NCBI GenBank assembly: GCA_045862915.1 | Contig: BTVE01000005.1 | Coordinates: 21,970 to 85,969, forward strand | Source of the DNA: Acidimicrobiia bacterium | Lineage (GTDB): Bacteria > Acidobacteriota > Vicinamibacteria > Vicinamibacterales > SCN-69-37 | Reading direction: 5' to 3' | Length of the DNA: 64,000 nucleotides | Shown here: positions 7,541 to 17,996 of the stretch, piece after piece | How the letters are laid out: the number at the start of each line of letters is the position of its first letter | Position numbering within the stretch: the stretch's first letter is position 1 | Made by a program: the position numbers and the translations under genes | The notes under the pieces: generated by a model | Told to the model about the DNA's origin: nothing | Databases searched by the model: none | What the model saw: the letters and a program-made list of their open reading frames with translations, nothing else

Positions 7541-10144
7541 CTAATCCAACCCCAGCCGCTTCCGCTTCACGAACAGTCCTTTGCGCGAGATGCCGAGCAG
7601 CTGTGCGGCGTCCGTGACCTTCCCGCGGGTCTGGTCGAGCGCGCGTTCGATGAACGCGCGTTCGACTTCATCAACAGCCAATTCGAGCGGCTGATCCAGG
7701 CGCACGGTCACATGAGGTCCGGACGGCACGTCGCTGCGTGGATGCGCCGCGTGCCACGGGCCGGCGACGTCGTGTGAAAGATCATCACTCCGCAAGGTGG
7801 CCTCATCGTCGGCGACGGCCACCATTCGGCGGATCTCGTTGTACAACTGCCTCAGGTTGCCCGGCCAGTCGTAGAGCAGAAATGCGGCCACGACATCGTC
7901 ACCGACCGTGATGTGATGTCGGCCGCATTCAGCCATCGCCTTGCGCACGAAGAACGCCGTGAGCGCGGGGATTTCGTCCTTGCGTTCCCTGAGTGGGGGT
8001 AGTGACAGCGCCGCGACGCGCAGGCGGTACAGCAGATCGCTCCGGAACCGTCCCTGTTCAACCATCGTTTCCAGCCGTGCGTTGGTGGCAGCGACCACGC
8101 GCACGGACACACGCATCGGTTTGGCGTCCCCCACCGGATGGACCTCGCCGCACTCGAGAAACCGCAGCAACTTCGGCTGCAGCGCCAGTTCCAGGTCGCC
8201 GATTTCATCCAGGAAGAGTGTGCCGTGGTCCGCGCTGCGGATGACGCCGGCCGACGACTCATGGGCGCCGGTGAATGCGCCGCGCCGGTGGCCGAACAGC
8301 TGGCTCTCGACGAGATCCCGCGGAATGGCGGAGGCATTAAAGGGAACGAATGGGCCGCGCCTTACTTTGCTGCTGTCGTGAATCAGCCGTGCGAAGACTT
8401 CCTTGCCTGTGCCGGTTTCACCCGTAATGAGGATGGGCAGGTCGGTCGTGGCCAGGCGTTCGGTGATGCGCAGCAGTTCCTGCATCCGCGGCGACCAGAA
8501 CACTGTGTCGTCCGGGCTGTTGGGCATCGTCATCGGCCACAGCCGTTCATCCGCATCGTCGTCCTTGTTGACGGAGGCGCCAAGCAGGTCGGTGACGCTT
8601 TTGACGATGGCGACTTCCTCGAGGGAGGCCAGATCCTGGACGTCGATCGTAATCGTGCGGTCGTTGTTCGACAGGTCGATGCGGCAGCCCTGGCTGCCCC
8701 GGAACTCCCACGATGCCGTCAGGGCACTGGTGGCCTGGTCGTGTCCCTCTGGGCGTTCACTGAGGCGGACGCGCGTGCGCAGCGGCGTGTCGTGCAGCAA
8801 CGACCGCACGCGTTCGGCCATCAGGTCGAGTGAGCGACCGGCGTTGAGGATGGCGGCCGCATTGCTCAGAAGCAGCGCGCTGTTGTCGGTATCAGCTTGC
8901 CGCCGTCGTTCAAGTGGTGGGGCGCCCTGAGACGCACCGCCCGGGCTGTTCGCGCGTTCGTGTTCGGCGATCCATCCGAGGAAGCGATGTTCGATCGCGT
9001 CACAGGCGCGGGCGGCGCGATCGAAGTGCCGCTGGGCCTGCACGACGTCTCCGCGATGCGCGAGACACACGGCGGTGGCGGTTTCGACGTGAATCATCGG
9101 GTCGACGGCGCCCTTGGGGCAAGCGCTCATTGCCCCGACGAGTGACGTATTGGCGGCGTCGTGCTGCCCGAGGCGTGCGAGGGCTTTTGCTCGGGCCGCC
9201 AGCAGCGTGGCCCGCCAGGTGCGGAGGTGGCGACGCTCGAGCTCCGGATCTGCCTCGTCGACGATGGCGACGATGTTGGTCCATTCTCCGCGGAGGGAAT
9301 GGAAGAGGCAGCGGGTGATCTGGTGCGTCAGGTCGTACCAGGACCTGGCGGGCACACGCTGGGTCGCGATCGTCTTACGGCACTGTTCGATCAGGTCGGC
9401 GGCTTCGGCGAGGTTGCCGAGCCGACAGCGGTGTGCGACGAGAGTGTCTAGAATGCCCAGCCTGAGGAAGCTCAGTTGACCGACGCGGCCGAGGGCTTCG
9501 TCGGCGAGTCTGACGGACGTTTCATTCTGTCCAGTCCACAAGAGGAGTTGGCTGAGATTGCCCAAGAGGCCGACAATGGGCATCAAGGTTATCTGCTGTT
9601 GAGCCAAACGCAGGCCATCCGCAGTTCTGCTGAGTGCCGTCCTTAGGTCGCCTGAGCTGGTCGCCACGCTCGCTTCGAGCAGATTGACCGCATCTGTCAA
9701 AGACGCCTCCCTGCTACTGCGTGCCAAACCTCTCGCAATGTCCAAATGGACAACAGCATCGGCGAGCGAGCCCCGAAGCGTCTCAAGCTTCGCGACGGCG
9801 ACGTGAAGGCGGGCGATTGACGCCGCATCCCCAATCTCGGTTGCTTTGTGTCGAAGCCGCGCAAGTAGAGGGGCCGTTTCGGACGGTGGGTAGAAAGGAG
9901 CTGCCCTAGAGACCCTGACGAACAGCAAATCGAGGCTCTCATGGGGGGCCGCAACTGATGATTCGTCGAGAGACGCCAACTGCTCCAGCGCACCAGAGGC
10001 ATCGCCCGAGTCGAACGTGGCGAGTGCCACTATTCGAAGGTCGCTTGGGGAGCTTGACCCGCAGTCTGCGACACACCGTATCGCAGCCTGGAGGTCGCCC
10101 GCAATGTACCGTTCCTGCGCAGTATCCAATGGTCCCCTGCCCAT
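7541..10144 (-). CDS. Sigma-54-dependent transcriptional activator (bEBP) with long N-terminal TPR-like helical region
   Basis: GETGTGKE Walker A, ESQLFGHRRGAFTGA, FLDEIG, WPGNLRQL, Fis-type HTH (AAQLLGISRKGL); no REC domain. Start is ATG 10144 or TTG 10216. Confidence 0.9.
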   Translation of the reverse strand: MGRGPLDTAQERYIAGDLQAAIRCVADCGSSSPSDLRIVALATFDSGDASGALEQLASLDESSVAAPHESLDLLFVRVSRAAPFYPPSETAPLLARLRHKATEIGDAASIARLHVAVAKLETLRGSLADAVVHLDIARGLARSSREASLTDAVNLLEASVATSSGDLRTALSRTADGLRLAQQQITLMPIVGLLGNLSQLLLWTGQNETSVRLADEALGRVGQLSFLRLGILDTLVAHRCRLGNLAEAADLIEQCRKTIATQRVPARSWYDLTHQITRCLFHSLRGEWTNIVAIVDEADPELERRHLRTWRATLLAARAKALARLGQHDAANTSLVGAMSACPKGAVDPMIHVETATAVCLAHRGDVVQAQRHFDRAARACDAIEHRFLGWIAEHERANSPGGASQGAPPLERRRQADTDNSALLLSNAAAILNAGRSLDLMAERVRSLLHDTPLRTRVRLSERPEGHDQATSALTASWEFRGSQGCRIDLSNNDRTITIDVQDLASLEEVAIVKSVTDLLGASVNKDDDADERLWPMTMPNSPDDTVFWSPRMQELLRITERLATTDLPILITGETGTGKEVFARLIHDSSKVRRGPFVPFNASAIPRDLVESQLFGHRRGAFTGAHESSAGVIRSADHGTLFLDEIGDLELALQPKLLRFLECGEVHPVGDAKPMRVSVRVVAATNARLETMVEQGRFRSDLLYRLRVAALSLPPLRERKDEIPALTAFFVRKAMAECGRHHITVGDDVVAAFLLYDWPGNLRQLYNEIRRMVAVADDEATLRSDDLSHDVAGPWHAAHPRSDVPSGPHVTVRLDQPLELAVDEVERAFIERALDQTRGKVTDAAQLLGISRKGLFVKRKRLGLD

Positions 10145-10228
10145 GCCAGTTTGGCGCGGGCTAGTATAGGGGCAATAAGAGGGCTCTGGACCAGTCTCCT
10201 GCACAAACTGGTACAAGAAAGTAAGGGC

Positions 10229-12178
10229 CTAGTGCACCTTTCTCGTCGACTGTTCCTTGGCTTCCGACCTCGGAGAGTGATGTGCGCTCGAGAATCCGGA
10301 GATGCCCGACGCAAGCAACTGGGCAGCAGACTCCAGCATCCGATGGTGATCCTTCTTGAAGTCCTCGCTGCCATAGAGAGCGGCCACGCCGAGCAGCGCC
10401 TCGCCGTCGATGACTGGGCAGACCAGAGCCGAGCGCAGGGGGACCGGAAGGGCTCGAGCTACCGGACCGATATCGAGCGCAGCATCCGAGTTGAAGACTG
10501 CCTGCCGATGGGCGTACGCCCAACCGCTGATTCGTTCGCCCACGGCAATTCGGATTGACTCGATTGTTGACGAACCCGATCCCGAGCAGTACATCGGCAT
10601 GAGTTCACTGTTCCCTTGCATCGGGACGTAGAAGACAACCGACGCGGCGGGGATGACCCGACGCACGTGGCGGAAGAACACTTCCACGGCCACATTCAGA
10701 GAGGCGGCCTTCGGAAGTTCGCGTCGCAGTTCTGCGAACTCGCGCTCCTCAGCCGTCGCGGCACTGATCACGTCAAGCGCAGGGCTCCGAGAGGTCCTGA
10801 CCAGACCAGCTTCTGCTGCCACGTTCCGACCTTCCGCTTCGTCGATCTCTTCGAGCTTGTCGAGGATTTCCACGAAGCCGTCTACAACCCACGGGTCGTA
10901 CATTGAACCGCGTCGGTCAAGCAGTATTTGCTCAGCCTGCTGTCTGGTCATCCGTGGTCGATAGGGGCGATCGGAGGTCAACGCATCATAGCAGTCGACC
11001 ACCGACAGTATCCGCGCGCCGAGGGGGATTTCTTGACCCCTCAGACCATCGGGGTAGCCGCGACCATCCCAGTTCTCGTGGTGGTGCCTGACGATGGGCG
11101 CGACAGGATAGGGAAAGTCGATGCTCTTGAGGATGTTGGCGCCGACCGCCGCGTGTTCCTTCATCTTCTCGAACTCGGACGGCGTCAACGGGCCCGGCTT
11201 GTTCAGGATGTACTCCGGAATTGCAAGCTTTCCCGTATCGTGCAACAAGGCCGCGGCTTCGATCGCCCTCAGTTGCTTCTCGTCTTTCACGCCGAGATGC
11301 CTGGCGACCTCCATCGTGTACTGCTGCACTCGGCGGATGTGGCCGTGTGTCACCTGATCCTTGGCATCAATGGCCATTGCGAAGGCCTTGATGGTCGACA
11401 TGTGCACGCGTTCGATGGCTTCCAATCGTTCCTGTATTTCGTCGACCTGCCTTGCTGATTGCCGATACGTCAGGTAGAAGACCGCCATCAACGGAATGAT
11501 TACCAGTAGTCGCAGCGACACGTTCTCAGCGTCGCCAGATGCAATCAGTGACGCAATCGAAGCCCCAGCGAGGTAGTTGACGCCGAGGTGTTTGATGCCC
11601 CACCAGGTAATCCCGATATCTCTCAATATCGTGCCGACAGTGCTCGAGCGTGTCAGGGCGATCGCCGTCGACACCAGCGCAGCGTTCAATGAGAAGTAGA
11701 GAACGGTGAAGACGACCAATCCGTACGCGAATGTCCAGCCAGCGCTTGCAAGCGTCAACGGGGAGGGCCCCGCGATCGCATGCAATGCGTATGATGCCAA
11801 CCACACTGAAAGGGGCGGTGCAGCAAGATTAAACGGTGTTTGGACGGTATCGAGACGGCGTTTCGTGTACCAGATCTTGGCTGACAGGACGATTGCGTCG
11901 AGCAGTACAAGAACGGTGCCGACGGCTTGGCCGTAGATTAGCGTGCCCGAGAATACAAACGTTTCTGAGACAGAGAATCTGGCACCAATCGACTGAAAAC
12001 GTACCGACAAGAAGCCGGAGAAGAGCGTCAGCAGTGTGAGGTAATACCAGTCGTTCCCAGGCGGGTGCGTGAAGAACACGCTGCGCACGCTTGCAATGGA
12101 AGCTGCAACGCCGGCAATGATAACCAGACCGACGTATACAAGTGCCCGAACTGGATAGGTACTGGAAGGGCTGGCCAT
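10229..12178 (-). CDS. Membrane-bound HD-GYP phosphodiesterase with about 7 N-terminal TM helices and C-terminal GAF-like domain
   Basis: Hydrophobic first ~240 aa; LLHDTGK, HHENWDGRGYPDGL, DCYDALTSDRPYR; C-terminal GERISGW...SALVCPV. Confidence 0.9.
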   Translation of the reverse strand: MASPSSTYPVRALVYVGLVIIAGVAASIASVRSVFFTHPPGNDWYYLTLLTLFSGFLSVRFQSIGARFSVSETFVFSGTLIYGQAVGTVLVLLDAIVLSAKIWYTKRRLDTVQTPFNLAAPPLSVWLASYALHAIAGPSPLTLASAGWTFAYGLVVFTVLYFSLNAALVSTAIALTRSSTVGTILRDIGITWWGIKHLGVNYLAGASIASLIASGDAENVSLRLLVIIPLMAVFYLTYRQSARQVDEIQERLEAIERVHMSTIKAFAMAIDAKDQVTHGHIRRVQQYTMEVARHLGVKDEKQLRAIEAAALLHDTGKLAIPEYILNKPGPLTPSEFEKMKEHAAVGANILKSIDFPYPVAPIVRHHHENWDGRGYPDGLRGQEIPLGARILSVVDCYDALTSDRPYRPRMTRQQAEQILLDRRGSMYDPWVVDGFVEILDKLEEIDEAEGRNVAAEAGLVRTSRSPALDVISAATAEEREFAELRRELPKAASLNVAVEVFFRHVRRVIPAASVVFYVPMQGNSELMPMYCSGSGSSTIESIRIAVGERISGWAYAHRQAVFNSDAALDIGPVARALPVPLRSALVCPVIDGEALLGVAALYGSEDFKKDHHRMLESAAQLLASGISGFSSAHHSPRSEAKEQSTRKVH

Positions 12179-12194
12179 GGGGGAGTCATGGCAG

Positions 12195-12229
12195 GCAATC
12201 CAAGGCAGGTGGTAGCCCGCCTTGGTTGC
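12195..12229 (-). terminator. Intergenic stem-loop (mRNA stabiliser or partial terminator)
   Basis: GCAACCAAGGCGGG-CTACCA-CCTGCCTTGGATTGC, ~14-bp stem with one GU pair and one bulge; no U-tract. Confidence 0.5.
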
Positions 12230-12262
12230 TTAGCTCCAAACGATAATCGAGCGAATCACCAT
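12230..12262 (-). CDS. Small peptide ORF MVIRSIIVWS (10 aa), putative signal-peptide precursor
   Basis: GGAG-acagac-ATG GTG ATT CGC TCG ATT ATC GTT TGG AGC TAA, between the subtilase and the HD-GYP gene. Confidence 0.6.
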   Translation of the reverse strand: MVIRSIIVWS

Positions 12263-12307
12263 GTCTGTCTCCGAGAGTCCGGTGGATTCTTGCTTGCCTT
12301 GTGAGCC

Positions 12308-14188
12308 CTAGTTGTCCCACACCATGGTGTTGTCCCAGACCATGGTGTTGTCCCACACCATCGTCTGGCCCCAGAAGTGCGAGTTGTCCCACACCATGGT
12401 GTTGTCCCAGACCATGGTGTTGTCCCACACCATCGTCTGCCCCCAGAAGTGGGAGTTGTCCCAGACCATGGTGTTATCCCAGACCATGGTGTTGTCCCAG
12501 ACCATGGTGTTGTCCCACACCATGGTGTTGTCCCACACCATCGTCTCGCCCCACAGCGTTACGTTTCCTGGGATGGTCTTGTTGTCCCAGACCATGGTGT
12601 TGTCCCACACCATCGTCTGACCCCAGGTCGACGCCTGGCCGAAGGTAATGCCGCTGGCCCACGCCTGTTCGCCACCGATGGTGTTGGTCAGGTCGAGGCG
12701 GTTGATGTTGCGGTTCTTGGCGAAGCGGACAGCCAGCGCCACGTTCATGCTGCCGGCGCCCTGCTTGACCAGGCCCACGCCCGGCAGGTGCTGCGCGGTG
12801 AGTTGCAGCGCGGTTTTCACTTCAAACGGCGTGAGGTCAGGACGCGCCTGCAGCACCAACGCGGCGGCACCGCTGGTCGCCGCAGCGGCCATGCTGGTGC
12901 CCGAGAGCCACATGTACGACCCGCCGCGCGCGCCAATCACGCGACGATCGCGAAGGTCAGGATTGCGCCACAACGTCGACCCGGTCGGAATGGCCGACAC
13001 GATCTTGTTGCCCGGCGCGAGAAGGTCCGGCTTGAGCAGCGCATTGGCCGGCAACTGTGACGGGTCTTGCGGCGCCGGCGTGCCGGGATCAACCACCGGA
13101 CCAGCCGAGCTGAACGTTGCAGGCGTGTCGTCGCTGCGGAACACCGTGCCGTTGGTGTTGAGCGCGCCCGCCGTCAGTGCATACGGCGAGTAGCCCGGCG
13201 ACACGATGGAGGCCAACACCGGTTTGTGATCTTCCGTGCGGCCCAGGTTGCCGGCCGACGCCACGACCACCAGACCCGACTCAACCGCGCGCTTGACCGC
13301 GTCCGCGAGTGGATCCTCGCGATACGGCTGACCCGCGGGGTGCCCCAGCGAGAGATTCAGGATGCGGACGTCGTAAAACTCGCGATACCGGATGAAGTGA
13401 TCGATTGCCTCGATGACGTCCGCCACATAGCCGGACCCATCAGCGCCGAGCACCTTGGCACTGACCAGCGTCGCGCCGGGCGCCATGCCCGTATACGCCG
13501 CCGTGTTCGTGCCATTCTCACGCGACCAGCCACGGCTGCCGTCACCACTGCCGGCGATGATGCCCGCCACGTGGGTGCCGTGTCCGTACTCGTCATCGCC
13601 GCCCCAACGCAGGCCCTCACCCGTAAAGTCGAGGCGCGCGCTCACGCGGTTGCGCAGGTCGCCGTGATTGGCAATGCCTGAGTCGATGACCGCAACGCCA
13701 ATACCGAGACCCGTGGTGCCGCCATACGACGAACCGTTGGCACCCTGCCACACCTGGTTGGCACCGGTGGCCTGCGAGGTCACCGCCATCATCGAATACA
13801 CGCGAACGTTCTCGATGATGCCCGACACCTGCGGATCGTTGGCGAGCTCGTCAATCTGGTCCGCCGTGCCTTCAAACAGGCCGCCGATGATCATCCGCTT
13901 CATCAGACGCACGCCGTACTTGCGGCCGAGACGATCCACCACGGACTGGGGCGCGGTCAGCACCACCTGGAACAACTGCTGCTCGGCGCGTGAGGTCCGC
14001 GCATTCCACGCCGCGCGGTACCGATTCGATTTGGCCGAGGCGATCTTGGAGGCCAGCTCGGGAGACATCCGCCGACGCCAGTCGGCCGACGCCGTCGCCG
14101 GTGTGAGCAATCCGAAGATCAGGGCTGCGCCAAGAATGCCGGCCAGCGCGCGACCTACACGACGAGTAGAAGGGTTGTTGACGTCCAT
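12308..14188 (-). CDS. Secreted S8 subtilisin-like serine protease with C-terminal Trp hexapeptide repeats
   Basis: Signal peptide (...LIFGLLTPATASA), propeptide-like region, triad VAVIDSG / HGTHVAG / GTSMAA, SAGN oxyanion. Start at ATG 14188, since the track's extension covers the promoter. Confidence 0.92.
   Translation of the reverse strand: MDVNNPSTRRVGRALAGILGAALIFGLLTPATASADWRRRMSPELASKIASAKSNRYRAAWNARTSRAEQQLFQVVLTAPQSVVDRLGRKYGVRLMKRMIIGGLFEGTADQIDELANDPQVSGIIENVRVYSMMAVTSQATGANQVWQGANGSSYGGTTGLGIGVAVIDSGIANHGDLRNRVSARLDFTGEGLRWGGDDEYGHGTHVAGIIAGSGDGSRGWSRENGTNTAAYTGMAPGATLVSAKVLGADGSGYVADVIEAIDHFIRYREFYDVRILNLSLGHPAGQPYREDPLADAVKRAVESGLVVVASAGNLGRTEDHKPVLASIVSPGYSPYALTAGALNTNGTVFRSDDTPATFSSAGPVVDPGTPAPQDPSQLPANALLKPDLLAPGNKIVSAIPTGSTLWRNPDLRDRRVIGARGGSYMWLSGTSMAAAATSGAAALVLQARPDLTPFEVKTALQLTAQHLPGVGLVKQGAGSMNVALAVRFAKNRNINRLDLTNTIGGEQAWASGITFGQASTWGQTMVWDNTMVWDNKTIPGNVTLWGETMVWDNTMVWDNTMVWDNTMVWDNTMVWDNSHFWGQTMVWDNTMVWDNTMVWDNSHFWGQTMVWDNTMVWDNTMVWDN
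12311..12634 (-). repeat. Coding 18-bp tandem repeat: 13 x TMVWDN with xxxWG[QE] spacers, including a duplicated 72-bp block
   Basis: AC[CG]ATGGT[GC]TGGGA[CT]AAC units; 12311-12382 and 12383-12454 differ only at synonymous sites. Confidence 0.95.
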
Positions 14189-14214
14189 AATTACGCTCGT
14201 TGACGTTTGCCTAC

Positions 14215-14229
14215 GCAGGTACCGCACCA
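14215..14229 (-). promoter_or_regulatory. Sigma-54 (-24/-12)-like promoter of the subtilase operon
   Basis: TGGTGCGGTACCTGC with GG-N10-GC spacing, 26 nt upstream of ATG 14188. Confidence 0.6.
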
Positions 14230-14422
14230 CACAACTGCACGATGAAGATTTCGTAAAACGCTGACAGTACTGCACTTGCTGTTCGGCCACGATTCGATCA
14301 CGCGTCGCGACTTCGCAGTGGCGAAGCGGTCGTCACCCGTAAGTCGTGAAACTGCACCATAATACGCCCGTTCAGGACGGTACGCCACAGGAGAATCTGC
14401 TCAGCCAGCACTGAGGTTACTC

Positions 14423-16126
14423 ATGCCCACAATCCACTCGATCCGGCCTGTCAGAACGTTGTTTTGCCTTTTGTTTGCCGTTGCCGCTGCGCACTGTAGT
14501 GGGGGGGCTGGTACTCCACAACAGGTTGGGGGAGGGACACTCAAGGCGAGTTACCGCACCGAACCCACCAACTACATCCGGATGGCGGTCTCCCCGTCCG
14601 CACCGAACCACACGGTCAGCCTCCTCACCCAGGCAACCCTGGTCCGGACGTCACCAACGGGCGAGTTGGAGCCCCGCCTCGCGCAGAAGTGGACCATGTC
14701 GCCCGATGGGCTGACCTGGACACTCGACCTGCACCCGGAGGCGAAGTTTTCGGACGGCACGCCGCTGACCGCAGCCGACGTCCTGTTCACCCTGGCCGCC
14801 GTCGAGGGCCTGCCGGCCGCCGGCGACTTCACCGTGGAGGGGAAACCCGTCACCGCGCGCGCCCTCAGTGACCACCAGGTCGCCATCGTCTTCCCCGCGC
14901 CGTACGGCCCGGGCCTCGCGATGTTCGAAAACCTGTTCATCCTGCCCAGGCACAAGCTGGAATCCGCAAGAGCCAACCACACGTTGCCGACAGTCTGGGC
15001 CGTGGGCACGCTCCCGGCGGAGATCGTCGGCGCCGGCCCCTTCGTCGTGAAGGACCACGTGCCCGGTCAGCGCTTCCGCTTCGAACGCAATCCGCACTAC
15101 TTCATGAAGGACAACGAGGGCCGTCAGCTCCCGTACCTGGACGCCATCGACCTGTCGATCATCCCGGAATACGACGCCGAGATGGCGCGCCTGCTCGCCG
15201 GTGAAACGGATGTGGTCACCGACGCGGCCGCGCTCGAAGACCTCGCCTCACTCCAGGCGGCCGCGAAGGACGGTCGCATCAAATTGGCCGACGCCGGTCC
15301 CGCCATCGACGTCACCACGTTCTGGATCGACCTGAGTCCTCAAGCGCAGAGCCGCGGCGACAAGCCGTGGGTGCAGAAGCCGGAGTTTCGACGAGCCATT
15401 TCACACGCCGTCAATCGCCAGGCCATCGTCGACACGGTGTACTTCGGACAGGCCCTGCCGGCCTACGGCCCGATTACGCCGGGCCATGGTCCCTGGCACG
15501 TCGCAGATCTGCCGACCACGCCTTTTGACCAGGCGCGCGCGAAATCGCTGCTGTCGTCCATCGGTCTCACGGACCGGAACGGCGATGGCCAGCTGGAGGA
15601 CGAACGGGGCCGCCCGGCGCGTTTCAGCGTACTCAACCGCGCGGGTCTCCCGGATCGTGAGCGCACGCTGGCGATCGTCCAGGAGCATCTGCGCCAGATC
15701 GGTGTCGTCCTCGATATCGTGAACGTGAGTCAGCCGGAATTGCTCGACCGCATGACCAAACATGCCTACGAAGCCATCTACTTCGGCGGTCGCGCGCCGT
15801 CCCTGCAGCCGAATGCCTCCTTCTGGACGAGCCAGGGAGGCTTCCACTACTGGCATCCGGGACAGCCGACGCCGTCGACGCCGTGGGAAGCGCGGATCGA
15901 TGAGCTCTTTCGTCAGCAGGCCACGACCGTGGACGGCCCGGCACGCGTGCGCCTCTTTGCTGAGATGCAGCGTCTGCTCGCCGACAACCTGCCTGCCGTC
16001 TGGTTCGTGGCGCCGCGGGTCATCATCCCGGTCAGTGGTCGCGTGAACGGCGCGGTGCCGCGGATCTTCTTCCCGCCGATCCTCTGGAACGCGGATCGCC
16101 TCTCGGTGTCGAGCGGAGGGCAGTGA
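14423..16126 (+). CDS. ABC transporter substrate-binding lipoprotein, family 5 (peptide/nickel)
   Basis: Lipobox-like AAHC; FSDGTPLTAADVLFT, GAGPFVV, FERNPHY. Confidence 0.9.
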   Translation: MPTIHSIRPVRTLFCLLFAVAAAHCSGGAGTPQQVGGGTLKASYRTEPTNYIRMAVSPSAPNHTVSLLTQATLVRTSPTGELEPRLAQKWTMSPDGLTWTLDLHPEAKFSDGTPLTAADVLFTLAAVEGLPAAGDFTVEGKPVTARALSDHQVAIVFPAPYGPGLAMFENLFILPRHKLESARANHTLPTVWAVGTLPAEIVGAGPFVVKDHVPGQRFRFERNPHYFMKDNEGRQLPYLDAIDLSIIPEYDAEMARLLAGETDVVTDAAALEDLASLQAAAKDGRIKLADAGPAIDVTTFWIDLSPQAQSRGDKPWVQKPEFRRAISHAVNRQAIVDTVYFGQALPAYGPITPGHGPWHVADLPTTPFDQARAKSLLSSIGLTDRNGDGQLEDERGRPARFSVLNRAGLPDRERTLAIVQEHLRQIGVVLDIVNVSQPELLDRMTKHAYEAIYFGGRAPSLQPNASFWTSQGGFHYWHPGQPTPSTPWEARIDELFRQQATTVDGPARVRLFAEMQRLLADNLPAVWFVAPRVIIPVSGRVNGAVPRIFFPPILWNADRLSVSSGGQ

Positions 16127-17046
16127 CGCCGACGTGGGTGCGGTTTGTCGCGCGCCGCGCGGCCGCCGGCGTCGTGTTCGTCCTGTTCGTCTCCACGTGT
16201 GCCTTCACGCTCGCACGACTTGCGCCGGGCGACGAAACCACCGGTGACCGGCTTGCCGGCGTGTCCGACGATGTCATTGCCGCGCGCCGCGCAGAGCTGG
16301 GCCTCGACGATCCCGTCATCGTCCAGACCGCACGCTGGGTCGCGGGCCTCCTGACGCTCAACCTTGGCGAGTCGTCGTCGTATCGGCGTCCCGTTCGCGA
16401 TCTCGTGATTGAACGAGGCGCCAACACCGCATGGCTCGCGACGCTGGCTTTCTCGCTGGCCGCGTTGCTCGGGATTCCCGCGGGCATCTTCACGGGGGCG
16501 CATCACCGCCATCCACTCGCGCGGCTGATTACGGCAATCTCTCTTCTGCTGGTGGCATGCCCGCCGCTCATTGGCGCGCTGGGCCTCTTGTACCTCGGTG
16601 TGCTGACCGGTGTGCCGTCGACCGCGCAGGGCGCTCTGGCGTTGCCCACCATTGCGCTGGGCCTGCCGTTGGCGGCCATGCTCGAGCGTCTGCAGTCACA
16701 GGCGACGCGTGAGGTGATGGAGGCCGGTGGCATTCGCGCCGCCGCCGCGCGCGGGATTCCGCCTTCGCGCCTGGTCTGGCGTCACGCCGCGCGTCAGGCC
16801 CTGCGCCCGGTTCTCGGCGTGCTTGGCATCGTCATCGGCACGTTGTTCAGCGGATCGCTTGCAGTCGAACTGGTCGCCTCATGGCCCGGGCTCGGACGAC
16901 TATTGCTGGATGGTGTCCAGTCGGGCGACGTCACACTCATTGCCGGATGTGTATGGGCCGGCGCGATCTGCCTCGCGGTCGGAAATCTCGCAGCGGACCT
17001 GCTGGCGGCGCTTGTTGATCCACGCATCGCGGAGCGGGTGTCGTGA
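16123..17046 (+). CDS. Peptide ABC permease (OppB/DppB-like)
   Basis: LAPGD, LGLDDP, NLGESSSYRRPV, AAARG, WPGLGRLL, VDPRI. Confidence 0.88.
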   Translation: MTPTWVRFVARRAAAGVVFVLFVSTCAFTLARLAPGDETTGDRLAGVSDDVIAARRAELGLDDPVIVQTARWVAGLLTLNLGESSSYRRPVRDLVIERGANTAWLATLAFSLAALLGIPAGIFTGAHHRHPLARLITAISLLLVACPPLIGALGLLYLGVLTGVPSTAQGALALPTIALGLPLAAMLERLQSQATREVMEAGGIRAAAARGIPPSRLVWRHAARQALRPVLGVLGIVIGTLFSGSLAVELVASWPGLGRLLLDGVQSGDVTLIAGCVWAGAICLAVGNLAADLLAALVDPRIAERVS

Positions 17047-17996
17047 TCCGCGCGGCGTGGATCATGGTGGCCGTCATCGCCACGGCAACCCTGGCCGCCG
17101 ACTGGATCGCACCGCACGCGCCCTGGCAACAGTTCCCGGATCGTGCCTGGGCGCCGCCCATGCGCATTCATCTGCGTGACGCCAGCGGATGGCACGCACC
17201 GTTTGTTTATCGCCAGGTCCTTCGCGATCCCATCACCCGCGCCTTTGACGATGACACCACGGAGCGAATTCCGCTGCGCTGGTTCACCGAAGGACGTCTG
17301 GTGTCGGTCGACGATGCCCACGCACCGCTGCTGCTGCTCGGCGCCGATGCGCTGGGGCGGGACGTCTGGTCACGCCTTCTGCACGGCGCGCGCCTGTCGC
17401 TTGGGGTCGCGCTGGCCGGCGCCGCCGCAGCGTTGTGGCTGGGACTCTGGATTGGCGCGGCGGCCGGCATGTGGCGCGGCTGGCCGGACGTCATCATCAG
17501 CGGCGTCGCCGACCTGCTGATCGTGCTGCCGAGTGTGTACCTCGTCTTTCTCATGCGCGCGGCCGTGCCGCTCACACTCGATGCACCTGCCGTGTTCGGA
17601 TTGTTGACCCTGCTGTTTGCCGTGGCGGGCTGGCCGCATGTCGCGCGCGGGGTTCGCGCCGTCACGATGGTGGAACGTGAGAAGGAGTACGTCGAGGCCG
17701 CGCGGGCGGCCGGCGCGGGACGCTGGCGGCTGCTCAGACATGTGATGCCCGCGTCGTTCGGCTTTCTGCGAGCGGAGGCCGTCCTCCTGGTGCCGGCGTT
17801 TCTGGTCGCGGAGTCCACGATCTCGTACCTGGGGCTCGGCTTCCTCGAACCCACGCCCAGCTGGGGCTCGATGTTGCGCGACGCTGCCAGCCTCTCGGCC
17901 ATGCAACGCGCGCCGTGGCTGCTGACGCCGGCCCTGTCGCTGTTCGTCGTGGTCTTCCTCGTGCAGCGGCTCTCCCGCGGTCCGTGGCGAGCGTGA
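17043..17996 (+). CDS. Peptide ABC permease (OppC/DppC-like)
   Basis: LGADALGRDVWSRLLHGARLSL, EYVEAARAAG, YLGLG..PTPSWG. Confidence 0.88.
   Translation: MIRAAWIMVAVIATATLAADWIAPHAPWQQFPDRAWAPPMRIHLRDASGWHAPFVYRQVLRDPITRAFDDDTTERIPLRWFTEGRLVSVDDAHAPLLLLGADALGRDVWSRLLHGARLSLGVALAGAAAALWLGLWIGAAAGMWRGWPDVIISGVADLLIVLPSVYLVFLMRAAVPLTLDAPAVFGLLTLLFAVAGWPHVARGVRAVTMVEREKEYVEAARAAGAGRWRLLRHVMPASFGFLRAEAVLLVPAFLVAESTISYLGLGFLEPTPSWGSMLRDAASLSAMQRAPWLLTPALSLFVVVFLVQRLSRGPWRA

Follow-up and report, generated by a model that had tools for sequence, protein, structure and literature searches.

Results

The subtilase gene and its hexapeptide tail

The window analysed in this study is a stretch of 64,000 nucleotides from contig BTVE01000005.1 of a Vicinamibacterales genome (GenBank assembly GCA_045862915.1, genus SCN-69-37), and our subject is the C-terminal tail of an S8 subtilase encoded in it, a tail made of six-residue repeats that nearly all carry a tryptophan. 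The gene, its domains, and the parts of the tail lie as follows, with positions counted along the window:

12308..14290, minus strand: S8 subtilase gene, longest open reading frame (ORF), GTG start, 660 residues
14084..14188, minus strand: putative signal peptide with a basic stretch, a hydrophobic core, and an Ala-x-Ala end, read by eye from the translation
12779..13705, minus strand: Peptidase_S8 catalytic domain, residues 196–504 (Pfam PF00082)
12635..12670, minus strand: two degenerate in-register hexads, EQAWAS and GITFGQ, directly upstream of the array (translation)
12311..12634, minus strand: tail of 18 in-register hexads, 324 nt or 108 codons (translation, Tandem Repeats Finder)
12545..12580, minus strand: irregular 12-residue linker KTIPGN-VTLWGE, the sole hexad pair with a Trp-less member; 12 or 14 residues in orthologues
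12311..12454, minus strand: two 72-nt blocks, each SHFWGQ plus three units (Tandem Repeats Finder, comparison)
12308..12310, minus strand: stop codon straight after the last unit, without a capping sequence (translation)

An earlier note on this DNA had described the tail as 18 in-register hexads, 13 of them TMVWDN, with Trp at position 4 in 17 of the 18, and this description is exact: the order is ASTWGQ-(TMVWDN)2-KTIPGN-VTLWGE-(TMVWDN)5-SHFWGQ-(TMVWDN)3-SHFWGQ-(TMVWDN)3-stop, and KTIPGN is the hexad without Trp. The 108 tail residues contain 17 Trp, versus 8 in the remaining 518, and Tandem Repeats Finder reports periods of 18, 36, and 72 nt over the tail with scores of 276–353. Codon differences among the TMVWDN copies are limited to ACC/ACG, GTG/GTC, and GAC/GAT, and the two 72-nt blocks differ, in what is a tiny comparison, at two sites, both synonymous as the note had said. 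It is also true that all differences among the TMVWDN copies are synonymous, but this is circular, since an identical peptide was the criterion by which the copies were chosen. A search of the own genome found the tail only once, its two extra matches being the repeat read in other frames. ORFs of 62–227 residues overlap the repeat in other frames (12186–13060, both strands), and two of them also surfaced as self-matches in the own-genome search; such ORFs, for example the one at plus-strand 12301–12648 that is rich in Pro-Trp-Cys-Cys, were rejected as genes because they are mirror products of the repeat. A role of the Trp codons in an attenuator was dropped as well, as the tail stands at the end of a 626-codon gene.

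The catalytic part is that of an ordinary S8 subtilase. PF00082 matches with E 1.6e-45 and 156.1 bits (gathering cut-off 21.8), and the triad and oxyanion residues Asp203, His237, Asn348, and Ser466 are invariant in 79 aligned homologues. When the catalytic part was searched against Protein Data Bank (PDB) sequences, 9ues_B and the Thermococcus protease 3afg_A matched best, at about 1e-34. When the full-length protein was modelled by AlphaFold2 with the 79 homologues, the pro-region and the catalytic domain were modelled well, with a propeptide-like fold at residues 106–160. C-terminal domains of other subtilases, such as the beta-jelly-roll of Tk-SP (3afg), are likewise non-catalytic additions to the S8 domain; the 3afg match (3.4e-34) stops at query residue 565, and no counterpart of the repeat tail was found in solved subtilases. 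Because orthologue matches start at query residues 28–44 and the protein atlas entry begins at residue 35, the true start is probably the ATG at 14188 (residue 35), and the putative signal peptide that begins there would end, as read by eye, in Ala-Ser-Ala. A scan of 12000–14700 found no promoter-like sites; it found one terminator-like site, on the opposite strand and inside the gene, which is fewer than in shuffles.

Layout of the tail and selection on its peptide

Orthologues are present in 17 of the 19 other genomes of the genus, all of which are kin and not independent samples. The earlier note had proposed two readings, a polyprotein precursor of a diffusible peptide and a beta-solenoid-like structural module, and had held that non-conserved tails in homologues would speak against both; we looked, and the tails are conserved. 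In the nearer clade, with nine complete tails including the one described here, the plan is a head hexad, two units, a linker of 12 or 14 residues, five units, an x-H-x-W-G-x hexad, three units, an x-H-F-W-G-Q-like hexad, three units, and the stop, which follows without a cap in nine of nine. Comparison of repeat number and sequence across genomes, as the note had suggested, gave a divided picture: the exact 2-5-3-3 layout is kept in six of the nine complete arrays (the others are 3-5-3-3, 2-4-3-3, and 2-3-3-3), but the unit type varies and may be TMVWDN, TMIWDN, TLIWDN, or TLVWDN. The leading hexads EQAWAS and GITFGQ track the species tree. A second clade has 5–10 units, then RVWGE, 5 units, and a short non-repeat end. 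In this clade (L013, L014, L016, and L043), the punctuation RVWGE or RVWGD is five residues long, so that the hexad register shifts by one, and unit numbers vary in the first block (10, 7, or 5) but not in the second (5). The tail of G002 closes in a divergent stretch after a shortened unit.

All xxxWDN hexads of 12 complete arrays add up to 152 units, with one peptide per array, and 56 of the 56 variable nucleotide columns among these units are synonymous. Most units of the Leu-type arrays are distinct DNA strings (e.g., 12 forms in 14 units), and the differences per unit pair are 0.7–1.2 in the three Met-type arrays, this one included, versus 2.2–3.0 elsewhere. A second strain, found in the public run X4, has ten listed tail differences, of which nine are synonymous and one is Thr>Ser. 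A uniform peptide with scrambled synonymous sites therefore means that the tail peptide is under strong purifying selection, which acts on each residue of the unit, and that the uniformity in most arrays is not due to recent DNA homogenisation. Selection on the peptide, which the earlier note had deduced by a circular argument within the window, is thus borne out across genomes. Unit orthology at synonymous sites was compared for the six arrays of equal layout, and only one of the 15 pairs gave p<0.05; the sites are saturated or reshuffled, and in-place parallel change and cassette exchange are therefore not separable by unit orthology.

Sequence class and predicted fold

Among 1.84 billion representatives, phmmer found 1942 matches to the 108-residue tail at E≤1e-3 and 308 at E≤1e-10, the best reaching E 6.5e-50. 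Three of the top 150 are subtilases, and the other 147 are non-S8 proteins of 188–7465 residues, built of N-A-x-V-[YF]-[GD] hexads. The YdcK beta-solenoid repeat PF18836 occurs in ten of ten scanned tail matches, in nine above the cut-off, together with weaker Hexapep and Bactofilin matches, and one PF18836-bearing match aligns to the solved YdcK structure 2f9c at 4.9e-13. By position, N-T-M-V-W-D of the tail corresponds to N-A-x-V-Y-[GD] of the YdcK-type proteins. The uncharacterised hexad proteins among the matches (P0122–P0270) are a large set with a median of 327 residues; 73 of 149 share an N-terminal L-Y-R-I-like motif, P0240 has the hexad repeat fused to a dynamin-family GTPase, and another reaches 7465 residues. 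Against PDB sequences, the tail has three matches at E≤0.0011, all of them hexapeptide-repeat proteins, in whose alignments Val falls on i, the inward aliphatic position, Trp on i+1, the usual Gly site, and Thr on i+4, the small inward position. The hexapeptide motif is [LIV]-[GAED]-x-x-[STAV]-x, which accommodates Val at i and Thr at i+4 but not Trp at i+1. No Pfam or NCBIfam model covers the tail of this protein (LbH_EIF2B scores 16.9 bits with a cut-off of 54, and YdcK_fam of NCBIfam 14 bits with a cut-off of 350).

The structure prediction that had been suggested for the tail was run with AlphaFold2 on residues 541–660, using an alignment of nine period-6 subtilase tails and 62 YdcK-type rows, and it gives a left-handed beta-helix with a short strand every six residues (mean predicted local distance difference test (pLDDT) 79.8, predicted template modelling score 0.68). 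The top Foldseek matches of this model are all left-handed beta-helices, for example eIF2B-epsilon with a template modelling score of 0.81 and a root-mean-square deviation (rmsd) of 1.4 Å. Exhaustive alignment to 48,161 chains gave LpxD, LpxA, PglB, and YdcK at Z 17.4–18.6 (YdcK at 17.4), spanning 113–120 residues with an rmsd of 1.5–2.5 Å. A complex prediction with three tail copies had a score of 0.00, with the fold of the partner uncertain in at least one run, and carries no weight on the question of binding. The idea that the tail is inserted as a transmembrane beta-helix was dropped, as 13 Asp would face outward.

The roles mainly known for hexapeptide beta-helices are those of acyltransferase and scaffold domains. 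Like the hexapeptide left-handed beta-helices (PF00132; LpxA, LpxD, gamma-carbonic anhydrase, eIF2B-epsilon), the tail repeats strictly every six residues, with position i aliphatic and i+4 small, and its predicted fold superposes on them at Z 16–18.6 and an rmsd of 1.5–2.5 Å. It differs from them in its letter-identical units, in the Trp that replaces Gly, Ala, Glu, or Asp at i+1, in having no acyltransferase or other active site, and in its place behind a secreted S8 protease. The YdcK-type proteins (PF18836; PDB 2f9c/2pig), which give the best sequence matches of the tail, share the hexad N-[AT]-x-V-aromatic-[GD] and thus an aromatic residue at i+1, but Tyr and Phe prevail there (Y 1670, F 810, and W 120 in 147 proteins), the x position is hydrophilic where the tail has Met or Leu, and they are not attached to proteases.

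The whole-protein search found 5633 relatives at E≤1e-3 among 8000 scored candidates, and the named relatives belong to Vicinamibacterales and other Acidobacteriota, save one Actinomycetota entry. The query and its 120 best relatives were surveyed for their tails, and the 119 of these 121 proteins that have the catalytic Ser motif were counted, the two without it being left out. Of these, 82 have at least three copies of the core phi-phi-W-[GDST]-x in their tails; the other 37 mostly have short tails, and several are labelled partial. The tail consensus is [DN]-[TS]-[IL]-[VI]-W-G-[NSD], and at two positions the gene described here has one of the rarer residues: of 761 motifs, 24 share its Met at −2 and 42 its Asp at +1. 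By dominant period, 18 proteins have 6, 19 have 8, 15 have 12, and 7 have 14; spacings of 7, 9, 10, 11, 13, and 15 are seen as well. As the spacing varies between proteins, the strict hexad is one compact form of a broader 'IVWG' repeat. Two period-8 relatives pass PF21300, the model of the grass (Lolium) ice-binding beta-roll, with 41.8 bits (P0084) and 35.5 bits (P0119) at a cut-off of 30; the protein described here gives no match to it. The left-handed antifreeze helix 1m8n matches the tail model at Z 14.0. Ice binding was nevertheless dropped because the habitats do not fit, the public runs that contain this DNA being bioreactor, wastewater, sludge, and landfill samples. In the protein atlas, the nearest clusters are unnamed; one of them has Hexapep on 28% of its members with a score of 0.88, which serves as a lead only.

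Neighbouring genes and co-inheritance of the tail type

The following features surround the protease gene:

10229..12178, minus strand: gene of a protein with HD-GYP (cyclic di-GMP (c-di-GMP) phosphodiesterase-type) and GAF domains, 130 nt downstream of the tail (Pfam)
11444..12178, minus strand: multi-pass membrane domain, residues 1–245 of the HD-GYP/GAF protein (hydropathy)
7541..10216, minus strand: sigma-54 enhancer-binding protein gene, 12 nt after the HD-GYP gene (Pfam Sigma54_activat 1.1e-62)
14423..17996, plus strand: genes of a peptide-type ATP-binding cassette (ABC) importer, SBP_bac_5 and two permeases, divergent from the protease gene (Pfam)

The HD-GYP/GAF protein matches HD_5 at 1.2e-42 and GAF_2 at 3.3e-09, and no Pfam family was found for its membrane domain. 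The gene is syntenic in 12 of 20 loci; the other eight have no match within a flank of about 1.5 kb, and several of these are cut by contig ends. The gene of the substrate-binding protein (SBP) of the importer adjoins the protease gene in each of the 20 loci examined, some of which belong to three other genera of the family. This suggests that proteolysis is coupled to peptide uptake, and such a conserved importer fits a nutritional protease. Nine neighbouring ORFs were scanned, namely HD-GYP/GAF, the sigma-54 activator, parts of the ABC importer, an aminotransferase, an M48 peptidase, and two without family, and no tailoring or export genes are among them. Gaps of 130 and 12 nt separate the protease, HD-GYP/GAF, and sigma-54 activator genes, which follow one another in the same orientation, with no terminator-like site found in between, and may form an operon. 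The sigma-54 activator has about 575 N-terminal residues with weak TPR matches only.

The type of the repeat unit was compared with the trees of the genes at the locus. The maximum-likelihood tree of the catalytic domain contains three well-supported sister pairs, each with one Met-type and one Leu-type array: the genome described here (G000, TMV) with G012 (TLI), whose catalytic domains are 94.3% identical while all 13 units differ in type, G011 (TMV) with G009 (TLV), and G015 (TMI) with G006 (TLI). The SBP gene tree has the same pairs, except that G006 groups with G018 and G015 stands beside them, and 0 of 461 SBP columns separate Met-type from Leu-type genomes. The rpoB DNA pairs G000 with G012 (95.4% versus at most 90.0%) and G011 with G009, in a comparison that excludes G015 because of a wrong-frame ORF and in which the query used did not find rpoB in G006 and G008. 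For the sigma-54 activator, G012 is the nearest again, with 75% identity versus at most 62% for the others, which is the pattern of the species tree.

The membrane domain of the HD-GYP protein, by contrast, groups by unit type, with clades of TLI (G012, G010, G006, and G018; 100/99), TM (G015 and G000+G011; 100/99), TLV2 (G016 and G002; 100/100), and TLV (G008 and G009; 93/94). Unit-type changes number six on the catalytic tree (15 rows) versus three on the membrane-domain tree (12 rows). In approximately unbiased (AU) tests, whose groups were named with the trees already known, the catalytic data reject a Met-type clade (p 5e-39), the membrane-domain data reject a clade of G000 and G012 (p 5e-11), and alternative groupings are rejected overall with p values from 5e-39 to 6e-5. 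Among the 254 membrane-domain columns, 20 separate the TM group, 22 the TLI group, and 9 the TLV group. The HD and GAF parts, either conserved or mosaic, show no relation to the unit type. The tail type thus follows the membrane-domain tree and not the flanking trees: tail and membrane domain are inherited jointly, in a cassette of some 1.2 kb that is older than the species and has its left boundary at the start of the repeat. The linker DNA of G000 and G011 is 81% identical versus 61% for G000 and G012, in segments that are too short for a precise 5' breakpoint. G003 (locus L040) has TLVWDN units, a 12-residue linker as found with Met-type units, and mixed TLV- and TLI-like membrane-domain signatures, and it is a possible recombinant within the cassette.

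Discussion

These data are best explained if the tail is a real C-terminal domain of an exported S8 protease, kept under strong selection, and a Trp-bearing variant of the hexapeptide repeat. As to its function, the reading towards which we lean with moderate confidence is that the tail is a folded left-handed beta-helix rod that is retained on the exported protease as a type-specific recognition or docking surface. The rod would have six to seven turns with three hexads per turn, a core of Val or Ile (i) and Thr (i+4), and Asp-Asn at the corners, and the alignment register would place ladders of Trp (i+1) and Met or Leu (i+5) on the outside. On the mature enzyme, where it would stay, it would serve in recognition or docking and have no share in catalysis. 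The co-inheritance suggests that the tail recognises the adjacent membrane HD-GYP protein, and our guess for the partner is therefore the periplasmic face of this protein, or otherwise an envelope or substrate polymer. A folded domain is favoured over cleavable peptides by the sequence class of the tail and by its model, and also by a layout that is conserved and a punctuation that is fixed. The beta-solenoid that the earlier note had considered is thus supported, as a prediction, by the resemblance to hexapeptide repeats and by the tail-only model.

Several findings weigh against this reading or against parts of it. Pfam Hexapep (PF00132) reaches only 19.4 bits on the protein, with a cut-off of 27 and E 8.1e-4, and PF18836 gives no match to it at E≤1. 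The left-handed helix comes from one of two AlphaFold runs; the full-length run leaves residues 549–660 under a pLDDT of 50, and 62 of the 72 alignment rows of the confident model are YdcK-type, which alone could impose the fold. A helix with Trp and Met or Leu pointing outward from each of its three sides would, as a free monomer, be unusually hydrophobic. Not all of the homologues whose period is 7, 8, 10, 11, 13, or 14 can form canonical helices with three hexads per turn, and two period-8 relatives instead pass the beta-roll model PF21300. No array mixes Met and Leu or Val and Ile units, though whole arrays of each exist, and a purely structural role should tolerate single conservative changes of this kind. 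On the side of the co-inheritance, G003 (TLV) is weakly placed beside TLI (60/89), apart from the other TLV genomes, the groups of the AU tests were chosen a posteriori, and the co-inheritance may be plain linkage, as segments 130 nt apart in a recombining genus would give the same trees. A uniform peptide, whole-array flips between sister species, and co-inheritance with a membrane c-di-GMP enzyme are an unusual pattern for a structural repeat.

A reading that goes further, and that we regard as possible although clearly less probable than the retained rod, is that the tail and the HD-GYP membrane domain are a co-diversifying specificity pair, in which the tail, as a rod or as released hexapeptides, would be the cognate ligand that sets c-di-GMP turnover. 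At least three old types (TM[VI]WDN, TLIWDN, and TLVWDN) would then be swapped between species as one cassette. If this is true, Acidobacteriota would have a quorum or self-recognition signal that resembles a pherotype and is carried by a protease. In the agr system, adjacent peptide and receptor segments co-vary against the species tree. The same relation holds here for the tail and the membrane domain, with one of 12 genomes (G003) weak; there is no homology to the agr-type specificity groups, and linkage alone could give the co-variation. A genetic and functional tie between an exported periplasmic protease and a membrane c-di-GMP protein on which it docks is outlined for LapG and LapD (PMC5231407). 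That system is a known analogue of the proposed docking but no homologue, and at our locus the tie between the exported protease and the membrane c-di-GMP protein is one of co-inheritance, which linkage alone could give.

The polyprotein precursor, which was the other reading of the earlier note, holds that the tail is cut after export by its own or another protease, e.g., after Trp, into identical hexapeptides, which would be a diffusible, type-specific signal, sensed by the membrane HD-GYP protein or imported by the adjacent peptide ABC importer in a pherotype-like manner. The one uniform peptide per array despite scrambled synonymous sites is in line with it (152 units, 56 of 56 columns), and a precursor is the simplest account of why no array mixes Met and Leu or Val and Ile units. 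It also agrees with the discrete types that flip between sister species, as between TMVWDN and TLIWDN in all 13 units at 94.3% catalytic identity, with the tracking of the sensor's membrane-domain tree, with the importer that is adjacent in 20 of 20 loci, and with a full-length model that lacks a confident tail fold. However, the units abut without spacers, cleavage motifs, or other recognisable processing sites, and only four odd hexads interrupt them. The nine neighbouring ORFs contain no tailoring or export genes, and peptide supply would not require the conserved number and order of units and the conserved punctuation hexads. Furthermore, the sequence class and the model indicate a compact beta-helix, a fold that is usually protease-resistant, the homologues would release peptides of 6 to 15 residues with Gly-rich spacers, and the SBP lacks any of 461 columns that separate Met-type from Leu-type genomes. 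We therefore consider the precursor unlikely, even though its uniform peptide, its discrete types, and the co-inheritance with a sensor keep it in view.

Cleaved C-terminal extensions are known in secreted subtilases of Gram-negative and thermophilic bacteria, and subtilases favour large hydrophobic P1 residues. The tail could accordingly be seen as a C-terminal pro-region that aids export or folding, or that keeps the enzyme inactive as a tethered pseudo-substrate, and which is removed and degraded after secretion, its fragments having no role; the signal-peptide-like N-terminus, the propeptide-like fold in the model, and the large hydrophobic P1-type residues every six residues are compatible with this. 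We think it improbable, as letter-perfect units, fixed punctuation, and type-specific co-inheritance with a neighbour are unneeded in a disposable part. Equally hard to credit is a self-association module, akin to the amyloid-like one of the earlier note, in which the uncapped helix end or the hydrophobic faces drive stacking, end to end or side by side, into a trimer, a fibre, or a surface layer: the missing cap in all nine complete nearer-clade orthologues, the Trp and Met or Leu that the register places outward, and the mostly trimeric state of solved hexapeptide-repeat proteins, with YdcK termed 'trimeric LpxA-like' in PMC4372379, speak for it, but the coupling to the HD-GYP membrane domain would be left unexplained.

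With Trp at i+1, letter-perfect units, the fusion to a secreted protease, and the wide occurrence in Acidobacteriota, the tail would represent a new variant of the hexapeptide/YdcK-type beta-helix repeat, and this Trp-laddered version on secreted proteases appears to be common in Acidobacteriota of soils, sludge, and bioreactors. The literature searched, which lay mostly outside the subscription journals, contained no paper on Trp-hexapeptide tails of subtilases and none on a coupling of proteases to HD-GYP proteins in Acidobacteria, and as far as these searches go, the pattern of uniformity with scrambled codons and the cassette of tail and sensor are undescribed. A functional coupling would connect proteolysis outside the cell with second-messenger signalling in a new way, and it might be the first recognition system of a peptide type in the phylum. 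If the coupling is linkage only, the tail is a clean natural model of selection that keeps repeats identical without DNA homogenisation.

The arrays also have consequences for databases. They often break short-read assemblies, so that such tails are under-reported and many entries are 'partial'. In four public runs (X1, X3, X4, and X15; Logan), no contig spans the array of the gene described here, and all break inside it; its copy number is thus without independent confirmation from the runs, and five other assemblies of the genus share the 2-5-3-3 layout. A contig from the RNA library X15 covers 12089–12339, across the stop codon and the start of the HD-GYP gene, which does not show a single transcript. 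Contigs of draft genomes often end inside the repeat (L012, L015, L017, L018, L019, and L022), and one stray small contig holds only repeat units (G011:C203:14-277).

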